Part shown: piece by piece, positions 4,180 through 13,407 of the stretch | Position numbering within the stretch: position 1 is the first letter of the stretch | How the letters are laid out: each line of letters opens with the position of its first letter | Assembly (NCBI GenBank): GCA_038217285.1 | Contig: JBBQPO010000167.1 | Coordinates: 1-13,407 of the forward strand | DNA from: Chthonomonadales bacterium | Lineage (GTDB): Bacteria; Armatimonadota; Chthonomonadetes; Chthonomonadales; Chthonomonadaceae | Reading direction: 5' to 3' | Length of the DNA: 13,407 nucleotides | Position numbers and translations under genes: made by a program | Notes under the pieces: generated by a model | The model's database searches: none | The model's input: only the letters and a program-made list of their open reading frames with translations | Told to the model about the DNA's origin: nothing

Positions 4180-5052
4180 ATGCGCGTACTGATGGTCGGC
4201 GATGTGGTCGGCAAGTCCGGACGAAAAGCCACGCAGGAGTGGCTGCCCATTCTCCGGGAAGAACATAGCATCGATTTCGTGATCGTGAACGGCGAAAACA
4301 CCGCAGGCGGTATCGGCATTACGCCGGAAATAGCCCGCTCGTTTTTCACACAGAGCGGCGTAGACGTCGTCACTCTGGGCAATCATGCCTGGGGCAAGCG
4401 CGAAATATTTCCCTATCTCGACGAAGAACCGCGGCTCCTGCGTCCCGCCAACTATCCGCCGGGCGCGCCGGGAAACGGGTACGGGCTCTATCCGAGCCGC
4501 TTCGGCCCGGTTGCGGTCGTGTCGCTACAGGGGCGCACCTTCATGGAACCCGTCGACGATCCTTTTCGGGCTGCCGACGCCATCCTGGAAACCCTGCACC
4601 ACTCGACGCGCATGGTATTCATCGATTTTCATGCGGAGGCTACCTCGGAGAAGCAGGCATTCGGCTGGTATGTGGCCGGACGCGCCAGTGCGGTCGTCGG
4701 GACACACACGCATGTGCAGACGGCGGATGAGCGCATTCTGCCGGGGGGGACGGCCTATCTGACCGATGTCGGAATGACAGGACCTGTAGACTCTATCATC
4801 GGGATGCGTCGCGAGATCGTCATTCCGAAATTTCTCAGTCTGCTGCCCGCACGTTTCGAGGTCGCAGAAGGCGAATCGCAGCTTTGCGCCGTATTGATAG
4901 ATGTGGACCCGACGACAGGATATGCCACGGCCGTCCGTCGTATTCAGACGCCGCTGCCTCAGCAGGCGTATACCGATGCCAACACGTCCGATGACCAGGA
5001 CGTTGCCTTTACGGACCGAGCCTACTCGATCAAGGAGACATCTCAAAAATGA
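4180..5052 (+). CDS. ymdB: YmdB-like TIGR00282 family metallophosphoesterase
   Basis: Motifs GDVVG, NGEN, TLGNH, LRPANY, DFHAEATSEK, GTHTHV and TDVGMTG. Conserved position downstream of rny. Confidence 0.93.
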   Translation: MRVLMVGDVVGKSGRKATQEWLPILREEHSIDFVIVNGENTAGGIGITPEIARSFFTQSGVDVVTLGNHAWGKREIFPYLDEEPRLLRPANYPPGAPGNGYGLYPSRFGPVAVVSLQGRTFMEPVDDPFRAADAILETLHHSTRMVFIDFHAEATSEKQAFGWYVAGRASAVVGTHTHVQTADERILPGGTAYLTDVGMTGPVDSIIGMRREIVIPKFLSLLPARFEVAEGESQLCAVLIDVDPTTGYATAVRRIQTPLPQQAYTDANTSDDQDVAFTDRAYSIKETSQK

Positions 5053-6170
5053 ACCTGAAAACCCGAACTTTTCGACCTACAAGGCGGCGCACTCCGCTGT
5101 TGACCGGCCTAGGCCTTCTCGCGCTGGGCTGGACCGCCGCGATGCCCGCCGCCGCCCAGGTCGTGATGAACGGCCCTGTGCTCTATCAGGGCGATCCCTC
5201 CGCGAAGTCCGGCCTCAAACTCAGCAGTTGGGGCAGTGGCACGGTGGAAGAGGACACGAAAGGCGTCTTCGGAACCGGGACCATGTCGCTGCGCATCATC
5301 ACGCATGGCCTCTACCAGGGCGCGAGCCTGCAGCTCGGGAAGTCCGTAGACCTCGGCCCCTACGTGGACAACAAGTACGCCTACCTCAGTTTCGTTCTCG
5401 TTCCGCCCGCCGCGCCTAACGCTACGAGCCCTGCCTCGGGTGGGTACGGTGCTCCTGGCCGAGGCGGGAAGGGCCTGGGCGGCGGTCCCGGTGGTTTCCC
5501 TGGGGGACCCGGCGGCTTCTCTGGCGGCTCGGGGGGGCAGGAAAGTGGACCGGGCGGCGGCAGCTACGGCGGCTATGGGGGCCGGGGCGAGAGCGGACGC
5601 CTTAACTCGACCACGCTCTCCGTGAAATATCAGACCCCACATGCCCTGCAGAACGTCCGAGTCGTGCTGGTGACCTCCACGGGACACCAACTCGAAGCTC
5701 TCCTTCCGCTCGATTCGGCGGTCGCGGAGGGGCAGTGGAAGCGGCTCAGTATTCCGATTTCGGTCATCCCTGGCATCAAGACCGACGACGCCCGAATTAA
5801 AGAGGTTCGCCTTTTCGGCGATACGCCCGGCGTCATGCGAATCGGCAATATCGGCGTTATTGTGGACGAAACCCCCATCACCGTCGATAGCCTGCCCAAT
5901 CGTGATCTCGCGCGTCTGTCCGCACACGAATTCCGCATCGTGGCCCGCGGCGGCATTACGCCTCTGGCGGCCTCGTGGGACTGGGACGCTTCCGACGGCA
6001 TTCAGGACGAAGCGCAGGGCCTATTCGTAACGCATCAGTTCCGCAAGGAATCGGGTTACGATCGGAACTCCAATAAGATCCTCGACAACGTCGTCACCGT
6101 CACCGTCCGGGATCTCTATGGCATCAAGAAGCCTGTAACGACGAAATTCTCCATCCATGTGACTCCGTAG
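5049..6170 (+). CDS. Secreted hypothetical protein: signal peptide, beta-sandwich-like region with Gly-rich insertion, C-terminal PKD-like segment
   Basis: ATGA overlap with the ymdB stop and AAGGAG just upstream. RRRTPLL plus a hydrophobic stretch plus AAAQ forms a signal peptide. The C-terminal WDWD...G..VTHQF...VTVTVRD resembles PKD repeats. Confidence 0.8.
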   Translation: MNLKTRTFRPTRRRTPLLTGLGLLALGWTAAMPAAAQVVMNGPVLYQGDPSAKSGLKLSSWGSGTVEEDTKGVFGTGTMSLRIITHGLYQGASLQLGKSVDLGPYVDNKYAYLSFVLVPPAAPNATSPASGGYGAPGRGGKGLGGGPGGFPGGPGGFSGGSGGQESGPGGGSYGGYGGRGESGRLNSTTLSVKYQTPHALQNVRVVLVTSTGHQLEALLPLDSAVAEGQWKRLSIPISVIPGIKTDDARIKEVRLFGDTPGVMRIGNIGVIVDETPITVDSLPNRDLARLSAHEFRIVARGGITPLAASWDWDASDGIQDEAQGLFVTHQFRKESGYDRNSNKILDNVVTVTVRDLYGIKKPVTTKFSIHVTP

Positions 6171-6202
6171 CAAGCGTAGGTTTCAAGGATGGTGTCTATT
6201 CT

Positions 6203-6245
6203 GACAAAAGCCTCCCTCTGCGATCTGCAGAGGGAGGCTTTTGTC
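6203..6245. terminator. Bidirectional rho-independent terminator
   Basis: Perfect 19-bp inverted repeat GACAAAAGCCTCCCTCTGC-gatct-GCAGAGGGAGGCTTTTGTC gives a T4 run on both strands, between convergent stops at 6170 and 6267. Confidence 0.9.
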
Positions 6246-6266
6246 CTGCCGAGATAAGGATCGGGT

Positions 6267-7721
6267 TCACGCGATCAGTTCAGGAACCACTGTACCGTAG
6301 ACATCGGTCAGGCGGAAGTCTCGGCCGGCATAGCGATAGGTCAGTTTCGTATGGTCGAAGCCGAGCAGACGCAGGATCGTGGCGTGAAGGTCATGGACAT
6401 GGACGGGCTTGTCTTCCGCATGGAAGCCGAACTCGTCGGTGGAGCCGTAGACCTGTCCGCCCTTGACTCCTCCCCCTGCCATCCACATCGTAAAGCCGTG
6501 ATGATTGTGGTCGCGTCCGTTCTGCTTGCCTGCGTTCGCGCCAGGAGTCGGCAACTCGACGGTCGGAGTACGCCCGAACTCACCGCCCCAGATGATGAGC
6601 GTGTCCTCCAGCATCCCGCGCTGTTTGAGGTCTTTCAGCAGAGCGCCGATAGCCTGGTCCGACTCACGGGCGAGGTTGCGGTGGCCGGATTCGATGTCGT
6701 CGTGATTATCCCACGGCTGGCCCGCGCCGTGGTAGAGCTGAATGAATCGGACGCCGCGCTCCAGCAGGCGCCGTGCGATCAGCACCTGACGCGCATAGAC
6801 GCCCTCGCCGTACATCTTGCGCACGCTTTCCGGCTCTTTGCTGACATCGAAGGCGTCCGTGGCGTCCAACTGCATCCGGTACGCCAGTTCGAAGGACTGA
6901 ATTCGTGATTCCAACTGCATGTCGTTCTGGTGGGCATGCAGATGTTTGAGATTGAGTTCCTGCAGCAGATCGAGTTGGGCGCGCTGTTCATGCGGCGCGG
7001 TATAGTTGTTCTTGATGTGCTCGATGATCTTCTGAATATCGGTCTGCGACGGGTCGATATAGGTACCCTGGTAGACTCCCGGTAGGAAGCCCGCCTGCCA
7101 GTTCTGCGTATCCTGGATCGGGTAACCGTGCGGACACATCGCCATGAAGCCTGGCAGGTTCTGATTTTCGCTGCCAAGGCCATAGGTGACCCAGGAGCCG
7201 AGACTGGGCCGAATCTGCCGGCCCTCTCCACAGTTCATCAGCATGAGGGACGGCTCGTGGTTCGGCACATCGGCGTGCATGGACCGAATGACGGCGATCT
7301 CGTCGATGTTCTCGGCGATATGCGGAAAAATCTCGCTGACCTCGATGCCGGACTGCCCATGCTTCTGAAACTGGAAGGGCGACTTGAAACATGTTCCGGT
7401 CTTGCGCTCGGTAGGCAGGTTGCTGTAGGGCAGGGGCTTACCGTGATACTCGGTCAATTTGGGCTTCGGGTCGAACGTATCGACATGCGACGGGCCGCCG
7501 TTCATAAAGAGGAAGATCACGCGCTTCGCCTTCGCAGGCAGCGGCGGATGTTTGGGCGTGAGCGGCGTCATGAGCGTATGCGTTGCCTTCACGCCTTCGG
7601 CCTGCGCTTGCTCTGCCAGCAGTCCAGCAAGGCCAAGGGCCGCAAATCCATTCCCCATACGCCCGAGCAGTTGGCGGCGGGTCAACAGGAGATCCTGCCA
7701 GTTGTTATCATGATGCGACAT
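6267..7721 (-). CDS. DUF1501 domain-containing protein (Tat-exported, sulfatase-like fold family)
   Basis: Tat motif TRRQLL; AKAKRVIFLFMNGGPSHVDTFDPKP, ARRLLERGVRFIQLY, WDNH, WGGEFGRTP, GRDHN, MWMAGGGVKGG and HVHDLHAT. GGGAGA SD upstream. Confidence 0.95.
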   Translation of the reverse strand: MSHHDNNWQDLLLTRRQLLGRMGNGFAALGLAGLLAEQAQAEGVKATHTLMTPLTPKHPPLPAKAKRVIFLFMNGGPSHVDTFDPKPKLTEYHGKPLPYSNLPTERKTGTCFKSPFQFQKHGQSGIEVSEIFPHIAENIDEIAVIRSMHADVPNHEPSLMLMNCGEGRQIRPSLGSWVTYGLGSENQNLPGFMAMCPHGYPIQDTQNWQAGFLPGVYQGTYIDPSQTDIQKIIEHIKNNYTAPHEQRAQLDLLQELNLKHLHAHQNDMQLESRIQSFELAYRMQLDATDAFDVSKEPESVRKMYGEGVYARQVLIARRLLERGVRFIQLYHGAGQPWDNHDDIESGHRNLARESDQAIGALLKDLKQRGMLEDTLIIWGGEFGRTPTVELPTPGANAGKQNGRDHNHHGFTMWMAGGGVKGGQVYGSTDEFGFHAEDKPVHVHDLHATILRLLGFDHTKLTYRYAGRDFRLTDVYGTVVPELIA

Positions 7722-7788: not shown

Positions 7789-7892
7789 CAAAAGCGGTCC
7801 GTTGTTCTGTGCTGTATGACACGCCGGAATGGACAGTGTGACGTCGATTTTCGTCTGGGAATGCAAACGTTGGACAGTGGTCAAAATCGGGG

Positions 7893-7923
7893 TTGACAGC
7901 GAACATCAGGTTTGTGCGATAAT
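7893..7923 (+). promoter_or_regulatory. Sigma70-type promoter TTGACA-19nt-GATAAT (with TG extension) for the glycoside hydrolase gene
   Basis: TTGACA at 7893-7898 and TGcGATAAT at 7915-7923. The spacer is long (19 nt). Confidence 0.5.
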
Positions 7924-7960
7924 GACAACTGGTTGCAACACGATCACCAGGAGAAGCCTC

Positions 7961-9289
7961 TTGAAATTATTGTCCCGCTTCCCGGTGGCGAATGGCGTTC
8001 GTCCCGCATGGTTTCGCACTCTTAGCCTCGGCCTTATGGCCCTTTGTCTCGTTTGCGCCGTTCCCACCACTGCTCAGAATTCGGATCCGAACTCCCCGTC
8101 TATCCGTAACGAAAACTTCTCGCCGCCTCCGGAAGCGCCCGATCTCCCCTCGGAGATGCGCGGCCTCTGGGTGGTGCGCGACAGCCTGATCTCGCCTGCG
8201 GCGGTGCATCAGGTCGTTCTGACCGCCGTGAAGTATCATCTGAATGCGTTGTTCGTGCAGGTGCGCGGCCGGGGCGACGCCCTGTACAACTCGCCCTACG
8301 AGCCGCGTGCCGAGAACCTCGCCCACCAGCCCAGGACATTCGACCCGCTGGAACAGATCGTGGTCGAGGGGCATGCCAACGGCCTGCAGGTGCATGCGTG
8401 GCTCAACACCTATCTCACCTGGAGCGGTCGTTGCGCTCCGACCGCCTGGCAGCATCTCTGGAACGCGCATCGCGACTGGTTCGCCTGTGATCGGCACGGC
8501 CACTGCTCCTGCGTGGGGAACGATCGGGTCGAGGGCGCGTTTCTGCAGCCGAGTAGCCCGCAGGTCCAGCAGCATCTTTTCAACGTCTTTACCGACGTCG
8601 CCTCGCGTTACGATGTCGATGGCATCCATTTCGACTACTGCCGCTACGGCGGGGCCGAGTACGACTTCAGTGCCGCCGCCCTGCAGCGCTTTCGCGACTT
8701 CATGCAGCCGCAGTTGCCGCAGGACCGCGCCGCGCTGTACGATGCCCGTCGCAAATCCGACCGTCTTGCGTATGTCCATGCCTTTCCAGACCACTGGGCC
8801 GATTGGCGACGCACGCAGATCACCGATCTGGTGGCGCGTATTTCGCACAAGGTGAAAGAGGACAAGCCCTGGATGCAGGTCTCCGCCGCGGTTTTCCCCG
8901 ACGTCAGGGAAGCCTTCGTGGTGCGCGGGCAGGACTGGCAGACATGGCTGCAGAACGGCTGCCTCGACGCCATTGCGCTCATGTCCTACGACCGCAACAC
9001 GGCGCATGTGCTCGCACAGACGCGCCGCGCCGTCGCCATCGCCGGGGAGCGCCACGTCTACACAGGGATCGGAGCATGGCGGCTGCAGGCGCACGATGTC
9101 GCCGGCAAGATCGCGGCTTTGCGGGGGAGCGGCGCGGCTGGCGTCAATCTCTTCTCCTACGGCGGCGTCCACAATCGCCCACGCTATCTCGATACGCTGG
9201 CCCGAGGCGTTTTTGCCAGTCGCGCCGCCCCTCCGCGCATGCGCTGGCTCCCGAAACGTGAACCCGCGCCAGCGAAGTTCCGTCCCTGA
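7961..9289 (+). CDS. Family-10-like glycosyl hydrolase (GHL10/DUF187, YddW/DigH-like), secreted
   Basis: EMRGLWV, LFVQVRGRGDALYNSPYEP, FDPL, LQVHAWLN, YDVDGIHFDY, WRR and QDWQTW. Start most likely TTG 7961 (in frame, AGGAG at 7949-7953, downstream of the promoter), which yields a signal peptide. Confidence 0.9.
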   Translation: MKLLSRFPVANGVRPAWFRTLSLGLMALCLVCAVPTTAQNSDPNSPSIRNENFSPPPEAPDLPSEMRGLWVVRDSLISPAAVHQVVLTAVKYHLNALFVQVRGRGDALYNSPYEPRAENLAHQPRTFDPLEQIVVEGHANGLQVHAWLNTYLTWSGRCAPTAWQHLWNAHRDWFACDRHGHCSCVGNDRVEGAFLQPSSPQVQQHLFNVFTDVASRYDVDGIHFDYCRYGGAEYDFSAAALQRFRDFMQPQLPQDRAALYDARRKSDRLAYVHAFPDHWADWRRTQITDLVARISHKVKEDKPWMQVSAAVFPDVREAFVVRGQDWQTWLQNGCLDAIALMSYDRNTAHVLAQTRRAVAIAGERHVYTGIGAWRLQAHDVAGKIAALRGSGAAGVNLFSYGGVHNRPRYLDTLARGVFASRAAPPRMRWLPKREPAPAKFRP

Positions 9290-9437
9290 AATAAGGTACT
9301 CTCTCAGAGTAGAGAGAGGAATTTTTGTGTCCAAGCAATAATATAAGATCATGGCACAAAGAGTGCGAACATAACATCTACTGTACATTCAAGGTAGGAT
9401 AGTGCGCCGGGCGCAGTCCTCCACGGAAGGAGATCTA

Positions 9438-9848
9438 TTGCAATCAACACCCCCTCCCGTTCTCTCCGCCCTTGCTGGCAAGCGAATTGTAACGGTCGAG
9501 GACGAAAGCATCACTCAGATGCAACTTCGCAAGGTTCTGACACGGGCGGGGCTCGTCGTCGTGGGACAGGCTATGAACGGTCGAGACGGAGTAGAACTCA
9601 TTCTGCGCGAGAAGCCCGATCTGGTCACGATGGACATCACTATGCCGATCATGGATGGCCTGGAAGCGACACGGCAGATCATGGAGAAAGACAATACCTG
9701 CGTGGTCATCGTGTCAGCCTATACCAACGAAGAATACCGAAAAAAGGCGGCGGAAGTCGGGGCCTGTGGATATGTCGTCAAACCGATCGCGGCGGCCTCT
9801 CTGCTTCCGGCGCTGGAATATATTTACGAACATAGGGCTTCAAAATAG
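9438..9848 (+). CDS. Single-domain response regulator (receiver only, PdtaR/AmiR-NasT-like REC)
   Basis: VEDE acidic pocket, phospho-Asp in TMDITMP, SAY and KP all intact. TTG 9438 preceded by AAGGAG (the ORF track uses GTG 9402). No output domain. Confidence 0.88.
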   Translation: MQSTPPPVLSALAGKRIVTVEDESITQMQLRKVLTRAGLVVVGQAMNGRDGVELILREKPDLVTMDITMPIMDGLEATRQIMEKDNTCVVIVSAYTNEEYRKKAAEVGACGYVVKPIAAASLLPALEYIYEHRASK

Positions 9849-9884
9849 CGGCGCTGTAGGAAGCCTTGCAGCTTTGCAGCGTGG

Positions 9885-10853
9885 CTAGATCCAGCGCTTC
9901 CACCGAGCCAGAATCAAGGTGGCGAAAGCGATCACGCCGATCACTCCAAGCATGGCCCAGAACCCTGGAGTTGAGGCAGGGTTGACGGGTACTTTCACTA
10001 AGAGGGCTGTGATTCCCACGATGACGCTGGCAGGAAACCAGACGAAGGAGACGAGGGTCAACACTTTTATCACCTCGTTCGTGCGTAGCGTCGTCTGAGT
10101 CGTAAAGATATCGAACGAGCCAACCAACAGCTCACGCGCGTTCTCCATGGCTTCGATGGCGCGATCCAGGCGATCCGCGAGGCTCCGGAAATGGACGGCT
10201 GAACTGGAATTCGCGATGGCCTGAAAATCCGGCCGCGTCATGGCCGCGTAGACTTCGCGGTGGGGGGTCAGAACCCGGCGGACAAACGCGACTTTCTGGC
10301 GCAGTTTCGCAAGTTCGGCCAGGAGGTCGCGGGAATGGCGCGGTCGCATGGCATGCGCGTCGATCTTATCTACTTCCTTTTCAAGCTCTTCCAGTAGCCG
10401 AAAGTAGCTCGTCACATGCCAGTCGAGCAGCCCCGCGAGAAAGCCCGGTGCATCGAGTTCGCCTAAATCGCTGTCGCCCTTGACCCGCTGATCGAAGCTA
10501 TCCAGGAAACCGACGGGTTTGCGATGCACGGTTACCACCAGGTTCGCGCCCAGAAGGAAATCGACCTCTACCAGCGTATATTTCCCGTTTGTCTGCTGAA
10601 TCGTCTGAATGTTGAACTGGGAGTAACCGGTGTAGTGTTCCAGGCGAGGCCGCCGCCCCGTCTGAAGCAACGTATAGAGCGACTCGCGGTGGAGTGACAA
10701 CTGTGAACTGAGAAGGCGCAACTCGCTCTCTTCGTACTCGCTGACATCTATCCACAAGAGCTGCTTGTCATGCAGATCCTCAACGCGCTGTTGCGTCAGC
10801 GCGACCTCCTTGTCCGTTCCTGTCGCATCGTATAAATAGGCCCGTGTGGCCAT
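9885..10853 (-). CDS. CorA-family divalent cation transporter, atypical (no GMN motif)
   Basis: LLWIDV, RPRLE, LVVTVH, long stalk helices, TNEVIKVLT, two C-terminal TM helices and a terminal RWKRWI. AAGGAG SD. GMN position reads ALL. Confidence 0.88.
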   Translation of the reverse strand: MATRAYLYDATGTDKEVALTQQRVEDLHDKQLLWIDVSEYEESELRLLSSQLSLHRESLYTLLQTGRRPRLEHYTGYSQFNIQTIQQTNGKYTLVEVDFLLGANLVVTVHRKPVGFLDSFDQRVKGDSDLGELDAPGFLAGLLDWHVTSYFRLLEELEKEVDKIDAHAMRPRHSRDLLAELAKLRQKVAFVRRVLTPHREVYAAMTRPDFQAIANSSSAVHFRSLADRLDRAIEAMENARELLVGSFDIFTTQTTLRTNEVIKVLTLVSFVWFPASVIVGITALLVKVPVNPASTPGFWAMLGVIGVIAFATLILARWKRWI

Positions 10854-10904
10854 CTTGGTTTCTCCTTCACCCCGTTGCAGCAGGGCAGGGATACGACGCG
10901 CCAG

Positions 10905-11360
10905 CTAGGAGAACTGTTCACCTATTACTTCTGAACCCCTCGGAAGAGTCCTCATGGCTTCCGATCCTATGTTAGGATCCACAAAGGGCATGCCCTCGCG
11001 CACGGAATGGATGGCATTCAACAAGACCTCGAGGCCGGACGACTTCGCCACAAAGGCATTGGCGCCCAGCCGCATCGCCGCTTCGACATAGAGCGGCTCG
11101 GAGTGATTGGAAAGGATGATGATCGCGACCGCATTCTTTTCGTTGCGCAGATACTGCAGCACCTCCAGGCCGGTCATTTGGGGCATCTTGATGTCCACCA
11201 ACAACAGATGGGGCTGCAGGGAATGTACGGCCCGGATCGCCTCCAGTCCGTCAGCGGCTTCGCCAATCAGCTTCAGGCCGAAGTCACATTCCATCATCAT
11301 ACGCAGGCTCTTGCGAACCATCGCATGGTCATCGGCGATTACGACTGTCATAGGTGACAC
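10905..11360 (-). CDS. Single-domain response regulator (NarL/FixJ-type receiver lacking LuxR HTH)
   Basis: VVIADDHAMVR, GEAADGLEA, LLVDIKMP, ILS, GANAFVAK and AIHSVREG..FVDP. The protein ends about 20 aa after the receiver. Confidence 0.88.
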   Translation of the reverse strand: MSPMTVVIADDHAMVRKSLRMMMECDFGLKLIGEAADGLEAIRAVHSLQPHLLLVDIKMPQMTGLEVLQYLRNEKNAVAIIILSNHSEPLYVEAAMRLGANAFVAKSSGLEVLLNAIHSVREGMPFVDPNIGSEAMRTLPRGSEVIGEQFS

Positions 11361-11387
11361 GGGTTACCCTTTCTGGATTCTGCACAC

Positions 11388-11396
11388 ATTATCCCA
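11388..11396 (-). promoter_or_regulatory. Candidate proximal extended -10 (TGgGATAAT) for the receiver-corA unit
   Basis: Plus-strand ATTATCCCA, 28 nt upstream of GTG 11360. Confidence 0.4.
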
Positions 11397-11562
11397 CCGA
11401 ATACATCCCGACGAGGAGAACGAGGCGAGGCCATCCAGGGCGATTCGAATCGTGTTGGCTTTCTGCAGGGAAGGAATGCAACTGTTCCGTCAGATCTGGA
11501 GGCGTCTACCCGGAAACGAGGTCGCCGTGGCGAGTGTCGTCGTTTCCGCGATGCCCGCCGAC

Positions 11563-11570
11563 ATTATACC
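11563..11570 (-). promoter_or_regulatory. Candidate distal -10 (GGTATAAT)
   Basis: Plus-strand ATTATACC; a perfect TATAAT on the minus strand immediately followed by a long hairpin. Confidence 0.45.
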
Positions 11571-11759
11571 TCGTGAATGCGTGAAAGCGTGTACGTGGAG
11601 AGAGGAAGGGCTGTTGTAGACAAATTGCTAGAAAGATCAATCAAGCCTGCACATGCAGTGTCAAAGGCGACATGGAAACAGAATCGTGGTCGATCAGAGG
11701 ATGATTGTGGGTAAGGCTACACTGCCCGACCCAGAACGGACCTGATGGCAGCGGAGGGC

Positions 11760-12887
11760 TTACTTGCGGCGACGTCGCAACAGATAACCGCCGCTCAACA
11801 GCGCCGCGCCGAATAGAGCGAGCGACCCAGGTTCCGGCGTCGCTGCACCCGTGACGGAAGGCAGGTTCCCGGCGAACTGGAAGTTATGGGATTCACCGCC
11901 GCCGTCGCCGCCGTTGATCAGGTTGTTCGCGATCAACGTCCCGTCGATATGGCCGCTATTGAAAGTGAGGTCCGAGAAAGGAGCCAGGAGACTGCCATTG
12001 ATGCCCACGTGATTGACGACGAGCCCACCGGTCGCATGAGAAAAGTTGTAGAGCACGTGCATCTTGTCCGTGCCGTTGACGGTGATATTGATGCTGGGGA
12101 AGGTGTTGGTATTGTCGGCAAGGGCGGTAAAATTCACCAGGACACTGTAGCCCGAATTTGCATTGATGGTAAGGCTGGAACCGTTTTTCAGTTGGTCGCC
12201 GCTCACGAGAAAGATGTCGGTTAACAGGGCATTGGTAGCACCGTGCTGCAGGGTGATATCGTTCGTCGTCAGGTTGGTCACGCCGTTGGCCGCTAGCGCT
12301 CCCCAACCGGTGGAGTGTCCGGTCAGATAGCTTGATGCGGAACTGAAATAAGCCGGAATAGTCGTCTGCGCGCCAGGATTGCCGGTTGCAATGGATCCAG
12401 CCGCGATCTGATAGGGTGAGCCGACCGTATTAGGCGTCGAAAACGGGGCGTAGCCCTCGTTTTGGGTGTAGGTTTTGCCGGTAACAAGGTTGATCGAGCC
12501 GCCCACCGAACCGCCTCCGCTAAACGTTACATTACTATTACCGAACAGGCTGCCCGTGAGCGTTGGCGTGGACCAGGTCGCGTTTCCGTTCACGTAAGCT
12601 GTACCTTTGACAGTATTGCTATTGTTCGTGTACGCGCCGCCTACCAACAGACTTGTGCCGGAGAGGGAGTTATTGTTGACGGTATATCCGCTGCCGCCGC
12701 CATGGGTGAAGTCTGCCGCACCTCCGACGCCCACACGCCCCTCGGCGTCGGTCCCGAACTGGTAATCGTTGCCCAGGGTGAATACGTTGAAATCGTTGGC
12801 GACGCCTAGGTTGTCGGCTCTGGACGGGACGACCCCAAGCGAGAGCGCCGCGATGCCTGCTATACCGAGAGCAAATACACGTTTCAA
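11760..12887 (-). CDS. Choice-of-anchor A domain protein with PEP-CTERM sorting signal
   Basis: Signal peptide; FNVFTLGN...DAEGRVGVGG, VLYNF..AT, GSLLAP, GHIDG and GESH..F.G.LP. C-terminal PEPGSLALFGAALLSGGYLLRRRRK. TTG start with AAGGAG SD. Confidence 0.92.
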   Translation of the reverse strand: MKRVFALGIAGIAALSLGVVPSRADNLGVANDFNVFTLGNDYQFGTDAEGRVGVGGAADFTHGGGSGYTVNNNSLSGTSLLVGGAYTNNSNTVKGTAYVNGNATWSTPTLTGSLFGNSNVTFSGGGSVGGSINLVTGKTYTQNEGYAPFSTPNTVGSPYQIAAGSIATGNPGAQTTIPAYFSSASSYLTGHSTGWGALAANGVTNLTTNDITLQHGATNALLTDIFLVSGDQLKNGSSLTINANSGYSVLVNFTALADNTNTFPSINITVNGTDKMHVLYNFSHATGGLVVNHVGINGSLLAPFSDLTFNSGHIDGTLIANNLINGGDGGGESHNFQFAGNLPSVTGAATPEPGSLALFGAALLSGGYLLRRRRK

Positions 12888-12930: not shown

Positions 12931-12939
12931 ATTCTATCA
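12931..12939 (-). promoter_or_regulatory. Extended -10 promoter (TGaTAGAAT) for the PEP-CTERM gene
   Basis: Plus-strand ATTCTATCA, about 45 nt upstream of TTG 12887. Confidence 0.5.
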
Positions 12940-13059
12940 GAGGGGGAGAGGGGGGCACATCCGTACAATTACGTAGATTTGTGGAGAAAACCACTTATCT
13001 TTTCGTTCGCTGAAAACAAGTACCCTCTCGGAGAGTCGGAGCCGTGGGACGGATCTGCA

Positions 13060-13067
13060 GGTATAAT
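13060..13067 (+). promoter_or_regulatory. -10 element (GGTATAAT) for the CDF transporter gene
   Basis: Perfect TATAAT at 13062-13067, about 105 nt upstream of ATG 13172, divergent from the PEP-CTERM gene. Confidence 0.55.
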
Positions 13068-13084
13068 CAGAGAACAGGCTGTGA

Positions 13085-13170
13085 TCGGCAGCAGAAGGCT
13101 TCCGCCCTCTGCACCGAGTGAGAACGGGATGCCGTTCCCCTGAAACGCTAACACGCGGGCTGAGAACTCC
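13085..13170 (+). promoter_or_regulatory. Structured 5' leader of the CDF gene (candidate cis-regulatory RNA)
   Basis: Hairpins TCGG..GCAGA.GGC-ttcc-GCC.TCTGC.CCGA (13085-13117) and GAACGG-gatg-CCGTTC (13122-13137). Partial similarity to the fluoride riboswitch layout. Confidence 0.35.
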
Positions 13171-13171
13171 C

Positions 13172-13407
13172 ATGGCAAACTCGGAAACCGAACCTGTAGC
13201 ACAGACGGAAAAAGTGTCCGCCGCCCGCCTGTCGCTGCTTTCGAATGCGCTCCTCACGGTCATTAAATTGACCATAGGACTGTTGACCAACTCGGTAGGC
13301 GTGCTCTCGGACGGCGTGCATTCCGCCTCCGATGTCATGGCTTCCGCCATCGCCCTCTATACCGTGCGAGAAGCCGACCGCCCACCCGACGAAGATCATC
13401 CCTACGG
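13172..13407 (+). CDS. Cation diffusion facilitator family transporter (FieF/CzcD-like), 5' part; truncated by window end
   Basis: Manual translation gives MANSETEPVAQTEKVSAARLSLLSNALLTVIKLTIGLLTNSVGVLSDGVHSASDVMASAIALYTVREADRPPDEDHPYG. This has the CDF signature S-x3-(S/A)D-x2-HS-x2-D followed by PPD-x2-HPYG. Confidence 0.93.
   Translation, partial: MANSETEPVAQTEKVSAARLSLLSNALLTVIKLTIGLLTNSVGVLSDGVHSASDVMASAIALYTVREADRPPDEDHPY

Follow-up and report, generated by a model that had tools for sequence, protein, structure and literature searches.

CorA-type channels are recognized by the tripeptide GxN, described as both the signature and the filter of the 2-TM-GxN family; it reads GMN in CorA, Mrs2 and Alr1, and CorA-family proteins assemble as homo- or hetero-pentamers (PMC6972854). 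In the account given for Thermotoga maritima CorA (TmCorA), a ring of Asn314 together with the Gly312 carbonyls forms the polar entry at which the ion is selected, T305 is a polar entrance residue, and the pore is hydrophobic below M302 (PMC3629940). Single GMN substitutions are reported to abolish Mg2+ transport (PMC4613352). In MjCorA, SYLPLA stands where others have EYMPEL (PMC3629940). Here we examined a CorA-like gene in a 13,407-nucleotide (nt) stretch of DNA, the window, from a Chthonomonadales bacterium (assembly GCA_038217285.1, contig JBBQPO010000167.1). Its product retains the CorA architecture and the inner-pore and gate residues of the first transmembrane helix (TM1). At the outer mouth, the polar ring of Gly carbonyls and Asn has given way to a small residue and two hydrophobic ones, by which TM1 is lengthened; a basic residue and an invariant Pro-Val turn come next, and the loop no longer has its acidic residues. 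Tentatively, we regard the protein as a CorA-like pentamer that is still gated but has ceased to be a Mg2+-selective uptake channel, with a likely tie to transition-metal homeostasis.

According to the list of open reading frames (ORFs) and their translations, the gene starts with an ATG at 10853-10851 and encodes 322 amino acids, among them LTLVSFVWFPASVIVGITALLVKVP; its coordinates, stop codon included, are given in Table 1. A preliminary description of this DNA, made from the sequence alone, had called the frame intact and preceded by a Shine-Dalgarno sequence. We agree, and GGAG-type sites also precede the start codons of most homologues. The protein matches the Pfam CorA profile PF01544 over residues 30-315 (profile positions 2-289 of 292; E 5.1e-52, 177.4 bits with a cutoff of 27), a full-length match that places it in the CorA/MIT superfamily. 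In a phmmer search of PDB chains, residues 33-322 aligned to TmCorA (8tmb_A, E 9.4e-24). An AlphaFold2 (AF2) model made from 40 relatives (predicted local distance difference test, pLDDT, 82.8; predicted TM-score, pTM, 0.69) has strands in 3-110, helices at 135-168 and 177-195, a long helix at 216-285, a loop at 286-295 and a last helix at 296-318. This is the CorA fold, with an N-terminal alpha/beta domain, a long stalk helix continuous with TM1 and a C-terminal second transmembrane helix (TM2), and the top Foldseek matches of the model were all TmCorA chains (TM-score 0.79-0.83). An ESM Atlas search returned generic CorA clusters only. The TIGR00383 equivalog (CorA Mg2+/Co2+) gave 133.3 bits, below its cutoff of 200.75. 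Because the GMN-bearing protein of a related locus, L012, also falls short (144.3 bits), this shortfall is a trait of the subfamily and not of the motif alone. The ZntB model NF007092 gave 45.7 bits, far from its cutoff of 292. By sequence and predicted fold we therefore place the protein within PF01544 as a homologue; since GxN is absent and both NCBIfam cutoffs are missed, we classify it neither as a CorA Mg2+ channel nor as ZntB.

The feature that defines the 2-TM-GxN family, GxN at the end of TM1, is missing. The phmmer alignment to TmCorA runs without a gap across TM1, loop and TM2 (query segment fpasvivgitallvkvpvnpastpgfw), and in it G312-M313-N314 faces A283-L284-L285 while M318-P319-E320-L321 faces P289-V290-N291-P292. 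TmCorA residues are numbered here as the 8tmb chain index minus 22, which fits the D89/D253 naming in PDB 5jrw and the residue names used in PMC3629940. The assignment of A-L-L to the G-M-N position at 10007-9999, proposed in the preliminary description, is thus confirmed at the level of the codons (GCC CTC TTA). The same description had remarked that the MPEL of the loop is missing. It is indeed absent, with PVNP in its place, but this is not peculiar to the protein, for GMN-bearing relatives lack MPEL too. GMN is not encoded in any of the other five frames of the motif stretch, and compensating frameshifts are therefore excluded.

The loss of the motif is shared by a large group of homologues. 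A word-indexed protein search gave 372 matches at E <= 0.001; the best 120 were listed, and 117 of these span the motif. At position 285, 96 of the 117 lack Asn and 21 read xxN. All but two of the Asn-less proteins (94 of 96) have the pattern [AGST][LMF][LVTFI] together with P289. Among these 94 listed members, residue 283 is A in 40, G in 21, S in 16 and T in 13, residue 284 is L in 61, M in 27 and F in 5, and residue 285 is L in 79, V in 6, T in 4, F in 3 and I in 2, never Asn. P289 and W299 are found in all 94, V290 in 90 and K, R or H at 287 in 85. The suspected GMN-less clade thus exists, with 94 of the 117 listed motif-spanning homologues. The 86 homologues listed as closest (P0002-P0087, 52-87% identity) are all without Asn at 285, so that the closest relatives have not kept GMN. 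The listed homologues stem from several independent sources (NCBI, JGI, ENA, Logan), and the GMN-less state is found in 94 listed sequence clusters and in 13 further full-length genome loci. Across these 13 loci the codons around the motif show many synonymous differences.

We estimated the ratio of nonsynonymous to synonymous divergence (dN/dS) by the method of Nei and Gojobori (NG86). An estimate was obtained for 18 of 23 pairs, all within 0.04-0.26; the other five were saturated. With dS above 1 in nearly all pairs these ratios are rough and, if anything, too high. For the window and L002, dN was 0.111 and dS 1.26 (ratio 0.09), and L001 and L002 gave 0.05. The TM1-loop-TM2 part taken by itself gave 0.05-0.35. 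The purifying selection that the preliminary description had asked about is therefore seen, and the relaxed selection or compensating frameshifts that would have spoken against it are not (dN/dS <= 0.26, no GMN in other frames). As judged from these comparisons, the loss of the filter is genuine and inherited, the clade is under purifying selection, and the claim that the protein lacks an ordinary Mg2+ filter stands on the clade, on selection and on its closest homologues.

To place the group among other CorA proteins we added an exhaustive HMMER search of 1.84 billion representatives, which found 7228 relatives at E <= 0.001, the best 150 of them listed. The listed matches of both searches, pooled, included 234 sequences of at least 280 amino acids. 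GMN was present in 113 and GTN in 11; a few of the remainder read GMS, GVN or SMN, and the others belonged to the Asn-less group or were singletons. In a FastTree phylogeny of 220 rows, motif columns kept, the Asn-less group formed one clade of 90 rows (support 95) nested among GMN proteins, with eight GMN/GMS proteins as its nearest neighbours. Nine other Asn-less rows were dispersed as singletons or pairs. A quick IQ-TREE analysis of 70 chosen rows, from which the columns of residues 280-297 had been dropped, put 37 Asn-less rows on one side of a branch; this branch is weak (Shimodaira-Hasegawa-like approximate likelihood ratio test, SH-aLRT, 30), whereas a core of 30 rows had a support of 99. 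The seven rows beyond the core read SLT, GMT, GMT, GLL, GML, VLF and SLF. The early branches of the clade are GMT, GML and GLL, and its nearest outgroups are GMN or GMS. These data would be compatible with, but do not strongly show, a single loss in which GMN eroded stepwise through GMT/GML/GLL to [A/S/T]-L-L.

By label, ten of the 13 full-length GMN-less loci are Chthonomonadales, Chthonomonadaceae or Chthonomonas metagenome-assembled genomes (MAGs), two are 'Alphaproteobacteria bacterium' (L007, L008) and one is 'Pseudomonadota bacterium' (L010). Elsewhere, L012 (a Chthonomonadaceae MAG) reads GMN, L013 reads GMT, and Chloroflexia and Steroidobacteraceae loci read GMN. The picture is that of a conserved CorA-type clade apparently centred on soil-dwelling Chthonomonadales. 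Several of these loci deserve separate mention. L007, L008 and L010 carry typical clade members (56-66% identity) in their differently labelled MAGs, and two of the three contigs are 754 kb and 236 kb long; either the bins are mislabelled or the gene was transferred out of Armatimonadota. MAG JBBRKX01 has two GMN-less paralogues, L004 (ALV, 73% identity to the window protein) and L014, an early-branching member with GLL and 52% identity, so that either the clade has duplicated or mixed pentamers are possible. L017 (match 6001-6943) and L018 (6001-6933), GMN-type loci of Chloroflexia MAGs, have two to three internal stops in translation, and in the Armatimonadota fragment L020 the match (141-538) is split over two frames; these disruptions are probably indel errors or pseudogenes.

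Which parts of the protein are held fixed was read from column conservation over 90 clade members, counting as kept those residues present in at least 93%. In the cytoplasmic domain these are D9, D14, W34, D36, R68-P69-R70, N104, H110, F120, D127, G131, H146, D162, R192 and P197-H198-R199-E200, all of them common to the GMN sisters. In TM1 they are T258, N259, K263, L265, T266, S269 (100%), P274 and A275; position 276 is S, G or T in 98% and S or T in 85%. Also kept are the GFW with which TM2 begins and the basic tail (W321 100%, R317 94%). What the clade has lost is the Gly, Met, Asn and Phe of the (Y)GMNF block and the acidic residues that the GMN sisters have at 292 and 295; what it has gained is P289, V290, E260, L256 in place of Q and, in the majority, W272 and F273. 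Loss of the TmCorA M1-site carboxylates (D89 and D253, here T61 and S224) was considered as a further trait of the clade and rejected, for GMN relatives lack them too.

Regional conservation was compared at matched cytoplasmic identity. Identity within the GMN-less clade is 0.56 in the cytoplasmic domain, 0.66 in TM1 and 0.39 in filter and loop (283-296). The corresponding values for GMN relatives are 0.27, 0.42 and 0.43 in the 0.2 bin and 0.54, 0.62 and 0.55 in the 0.5 bin. TM1 is thus the most and filter plus loop the least conserved region of the clade, the invariant P289 and V290 aside, whereas in GMN relatives the conservation of filter and loop exceeds that of the cytoplasmic domain. It follows that the old filter was freed from precise constraint and the pore helix was not.

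The best reading of these data is that the protein is a functional member of a Chthonomonadales-centred clade descended from MPEL-less, GMN-bearing CorA channels. Judging by homology, a CorA-like pentamer would still assemble, and its conserved cytoplasmic domain may control opening. Binding and selection of hydrated Mg2+ at the mouth would be lost, and for this reason the protein should not act as a Mg2+-selective uptake channel. Most likely it would form a gated pore of different or looser permeation and, together with exporters of the CDF and VIT1 types, serve the homeostasis of a transition metal (Fe, Zn, Mn or Co). It is also possible, though we rather doubt it, that the clade represents a new functional class: a cytoplasmically gated pentameric pore whose hydrophobic, positively fringed mouth replaces the hydrated-Mg2+ filter and which passes another solute, taking it up or releasing it in Chthonomonadales as the counterpart to CDF and VIT1 exporters. 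Such a pore might pass a monovalent ion, an anion, or a transition-metal ion that is weakly hydrated or partly dehydrated.

The exporters named here come from the genomic surroundings (Table 1). A metal exporter gene lies near seven of the 14 full-length GMN-less loci whose flanks were examined, in up to five arrangements; all equivalog scores behind these calls are under their cutoffs. The CDF gene of the window is divergent from the CorA-like gene, about 2.3 kb off, and its product is 90% identical to that of L001 by tblastn. The L001 orthologue scores 243 bits with TIGR01297, with FieF as its best equivalog, below that model's cutoff. Near six GMN loci (L012, L015-L019), tblastn with exporter queries found no metal exporter; a Pfam scan of the neighbours of L012, L015, L016 and L019 found none either, L017 and L018 being covered by tblastn alone. 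Flank lengths are unequal across loci, and the synteny of the window, L001 and L002 reflects shared ancestry, which makes the exporter association a lead and not a statistic. In L005, the VIT1/MbfA-like gene (7149-7623) is split between two frames, its pieces being 86% and 72% identical to the L004 protein, and the ORF as called has no Pfam match; this suggests a frameshift or an assembly indel error.

Table 1. Features of the CorA-like gene and its neighbourhood in the window, with exporter genes at related loci.
Feature	Position or locus	Strand or orientation	Remarks
CorA-like ORF	9885..10853	-	intact, full length, without GxN motif; Pfam, AF2, Foldseek
Shine-Dalgarno AAGGAG	10862..10867	-	8 nt 5' of ATG; read from sequence
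A283-L284-L285, former selectivity filter	9999..10007	-	codons GCC CTC TTA; ungapped phmmer
TM1 pore helix, about residues 255-285	9999..10091	-	AF2 helix 216-285; column conservation
Periplasmic loop, residues 286-295	9969..9998	-	AF2; basic K287, P289-V290 (codons 9984-9989), no acidic residue
TM2, residues 296-318	9900..9968	-	AF2; starts G297-F298-W299; basic C-terminus RWKRWI behind
Receiver-only response regulator	10905..11360	-	directly upstream, same strand; Pfam Response_reg E 4e-26
Second receiver-only response regulator	9402..9848	+	convergent with CorA-like gene; Pfam Response_reg E 1.3e-26
CDF (FieF-like) cation-efflux gene, first 78 codons	13172..13405	+	runs off window; Pfam Cation_efflux E 1.1e-15
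FieF-like CDF	window (13172 to end), L001, L002	divergent	
ZitB-like CDF	L006, L008	upstream	L008: same strand, 15-nt gap
VIT1 membrane domain (MbfA-like) gene	L004, L005	L004 upstream, L005 downstream	abutting; L005 looks frameshifted

The two response regulators that flank the CorA-like gene in the window appear to be a local arrangement. The upstream one, a NarL/FixJ-type receiver with no output domain, is separated from the CorA-like gene by 51 nt. We considered a conserved operon with response regulators and rejected it: by tblastn, among 19 loci with a full match, orthologues of the upstream regulator occur in L001 and L002 only and those of the second in L001 only. In L001, a hybrid receiver-histidine kinase adjoins the CDF gene. 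With Rfam at gathering thresholds, the window and all 20 related loci yielded two tRNAs only and no riboswitch or leader; no 8-mer is common to more than three of 14 upstream regions. A scan of 9300-11800 found one promoter-like and two terminator-like sites, not above shuffles, and none of them lies between the upstream regulator and the CorA-like gene. In L005, a perfect GC-rich hairpin followed by a T-rich stretch, terminator-like in form, stands about 60-90 nt upstream of the CorA-like start, after a DUF892 gene. Because this hairpin separates the two genes, the L005 copy probably has its own promoter.

Other ORFs of the window were noted in passing. At 5049-6170 (+), a 373-amino-acid frame with no Pfam or NCBIfam match overlaps the stop of a YmdB-like gene by 4 nt, downstream of the RNase Y - YmdB pair. 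A GHL10-family glycosyl-hydrolase-like gene occupies 7829-9289 (+); the 473-amino-acid ORF antisense to it (7967-9388, -) has no family match and is probably not a gene. An ORF at 12937-13350 (-), likewise without a family match, lies antisense over the start of the CDF gene, and its counterparts in L001 and L002 are also antisense to the CDF gene. The stretch 11760-12887 (-), located between the CDF gene and the upstream response regulator, encodes a PEP-CTERM protein whose putative adhesive domain is ice-binding-like; this gene is missing from the otherwise syntenic L001 and L002.

How far can the data be explained otherwise? An error of assembly or sequencing, or a pseudogene in decay, has a practically negligible probability, with nothing found in its favour, and is already refuted: the frame is intact, full length and has a Shine-Dalgarno sequence, no alternative frame gives GMN, the same state recurs in the independently sourced clusters and genome loci described above, and dN/dS does not exceed 0.26. 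It is very improbable that the protein is a defence effector like CRISPR-associated CorA, which a nucleotide second messenger would open so as to disrupt the membrane. The CorA scaffold does have a precedent as an immune effector that binds S-adenosylmethionine-AMP (SAM-AMP), as reported in PMC10600005. However, no cas or other defence gene is found among the ORFs of the window or the scanned neighbours of 17 related loci, and PADLOC gave no match for the CorA-like protein (P0001), its neighbours giving weak receiver-domain cross-matches only. The protein has an ordinary CorA cytoplasmic domain with a full-length Pfam match and no distinct ligand-binding N-terminal domain, and the gene context varies and is of a housekeeping or metal type. 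We also consider it quite unlikely that the protein is still a CorA-type Mg2+/Co2+ (divalent-cation) channel in which selection or dehydration of the ion has moved to other groups, for instance the backbone carbonyls of residue 283, S276 and S269, with the kinetics changed and not the substrate class. Such a channel would account for polar S269 and S276 and the gate residues N259 and L265 in the most conserved part of the protein, for a small residue at 283 in 90 of the 94 listed members, for invariant cytoplasmic residues common to the GMN sisters and for the database name 'magnesium transporter CorA' that members carry, by homology only. Against it stand the reported loss of Mg2+ transport on single GMN substitutions (PMC4613352) and the description of the Asn ring as the actual selection site (PMC3629940), together with the absence of Asn from all 94 listed members and a loop in which the acids are gone and a basic residue is kept. 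The TIGR00383 score also falls on this side, though GMN-bearing L012 is below the cutoff as well.

Unlikely, but less easily set aside, is a non-conducting CorA-fold protein, that is, a membrane-anchored cytoplasmic sensor or regulator (of exporters or two-component signalling) or a modulatory subunit that joins a GMN paralogue in mixed pentamers. It would explain why filter and loop are least constrained while the cytoplasmic domain is strongly conserved. The paralogues of MAG JBBRKX01 make mixed pentamers conceivable, and the family is described as forming homo- or hetero-pentamers (PMC6972854). The receiver-only response regulators flanking the gene in the window, L001 and L002 lend some weak support to the sensor for signalling proposed in the preliminary description, but this link is confined to the two closest loci and absent from the other 17 of the 19 searched. 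Conserved polar pore-lining residues in TM1 would be needless for a mere anchor. Moreover, no GMN copy was found in the GMN-less genomes by search patterns that would miss canonical CorAs of other subfamilies, and the sole Chthonomonadaceae genome with a GMN sister (L012) gave no GMN-less copy with the same patterns. Since GMN and GMN-less copies were not found together, the relationship looks like replacement and not partnership. We therefore return to the gated pore of altered permeation, against which several points must be counted. Its substrate is a guess. The exporter neighbourhood is seen at half of the loci only, involves three exporter families and is partly due to shared ancestry. 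The variability of residues 283-288 fits equally a mouth that has no specific role, as in a non-conducting protein. The dN/dS ratios are rough, as said above, and a single loss is compatible with the trees but not proven, because the branch uniting the Asn-less rows is weak once the filter columns are removed.

GMN or GxN has been treated as the universal signature and filter of CorA, Mrs2, Alr1 and ZntB, and here is a natural, diversified clade entirely without GxN. A literature search, whose coverage left out most subscription journals, found no description of a bacterial CorA clade without GxN. The clade amounts to a ready-made experiment on how the CorA scaffold functions without its filter, and on the separation of selectivity and gating. 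If the clade is indeed a new functional class, the series from GMN through GMT/GML/GLL to [A/S/T]LL would record, in living lineages, a change of filter without loss of the gate. The public name 'magnesium transporter CorA' is probably wrong for the clade, and metabolic reconstructions of Armatimonadota that count its members as Mg2+ uptake may mislead.

Set beside known systems, the protein has the same full-length fold as TmCorA, a group-A Mg2+/Co2+ channel (PDB 4i0u, 3jcf, 8tmb), at about 20% sequence identity. The two share the stalk-TM1 helix, the Pro of TM1 (P274, Tm P303) and the basic C-terminal tail, and at the inner pore and gate N259 corresponds to N288, I/M262 to M291, L265 to L294, S269 to A298 and S276 to T305. 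They differ in the mouth, where besides G312-M313-N314 to A-L-L and MPEL to PVNP the loop residues E316 and E320 have become K287 and N291. TmCorA D89 and D253 are T61 and S224 here, and these acids are also absent from the GMN relatives of the subfamily. The closest GMN/GMS sisters (P0088, P0090, P0093, P0094, P0097, P0098, P0101, P0104 and L012; 44-52% identical, 321-322 amino acids) share D9, D14, D36, R68-P69, N104, H110, F120, D127, G131 and H198-R199-E200. Like the clade, they are without MPEL, and a basic residue follows the motif (L012 reads GMNFKVPIYD). They read G-M-N or G-M-S, carry F or L at 286 and are acidic at 292 and 295, none of which applies to the clade; there, P289 and V290 are fixed, W272 and F273 are favoured, and L256 replaces Q. 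Next to L012, no metal exporter turned up.

Tripeptides other than GMN are on record in ZntB (GxN with V or I) and in rice OsMRS2-4, -5 and -8 (AMN, GIN), where the accounts in PMC4613352 and PMC6972854 tie them to a change of substrate. These variants, as described in the same sources, all keep Asn, whereas the clade is without Asn and mostly without Gly. The closest known case of a CorA scaffold put to another use is, as described in PMC10600005, the SAM-AMP-activated CRISPR-associated CorA of Bacteroides fragilis type III-B, in which the two-helix pentameric scaffold is reused and does not serve Mg2+ uptake. That protein is CorA-like in its C-terminal 172 residues only and sits in a cas10/NrN neighbourhood (PMC10600005). 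A type III locus with NrN or SAM-AMP lyase was found neither in the window nor among the scanned neighbours of the 17 loci. By that description, the protein of the window is set apart from the CRISPR-associated CorA: it is CorA-like throughout and stands in no defence context.

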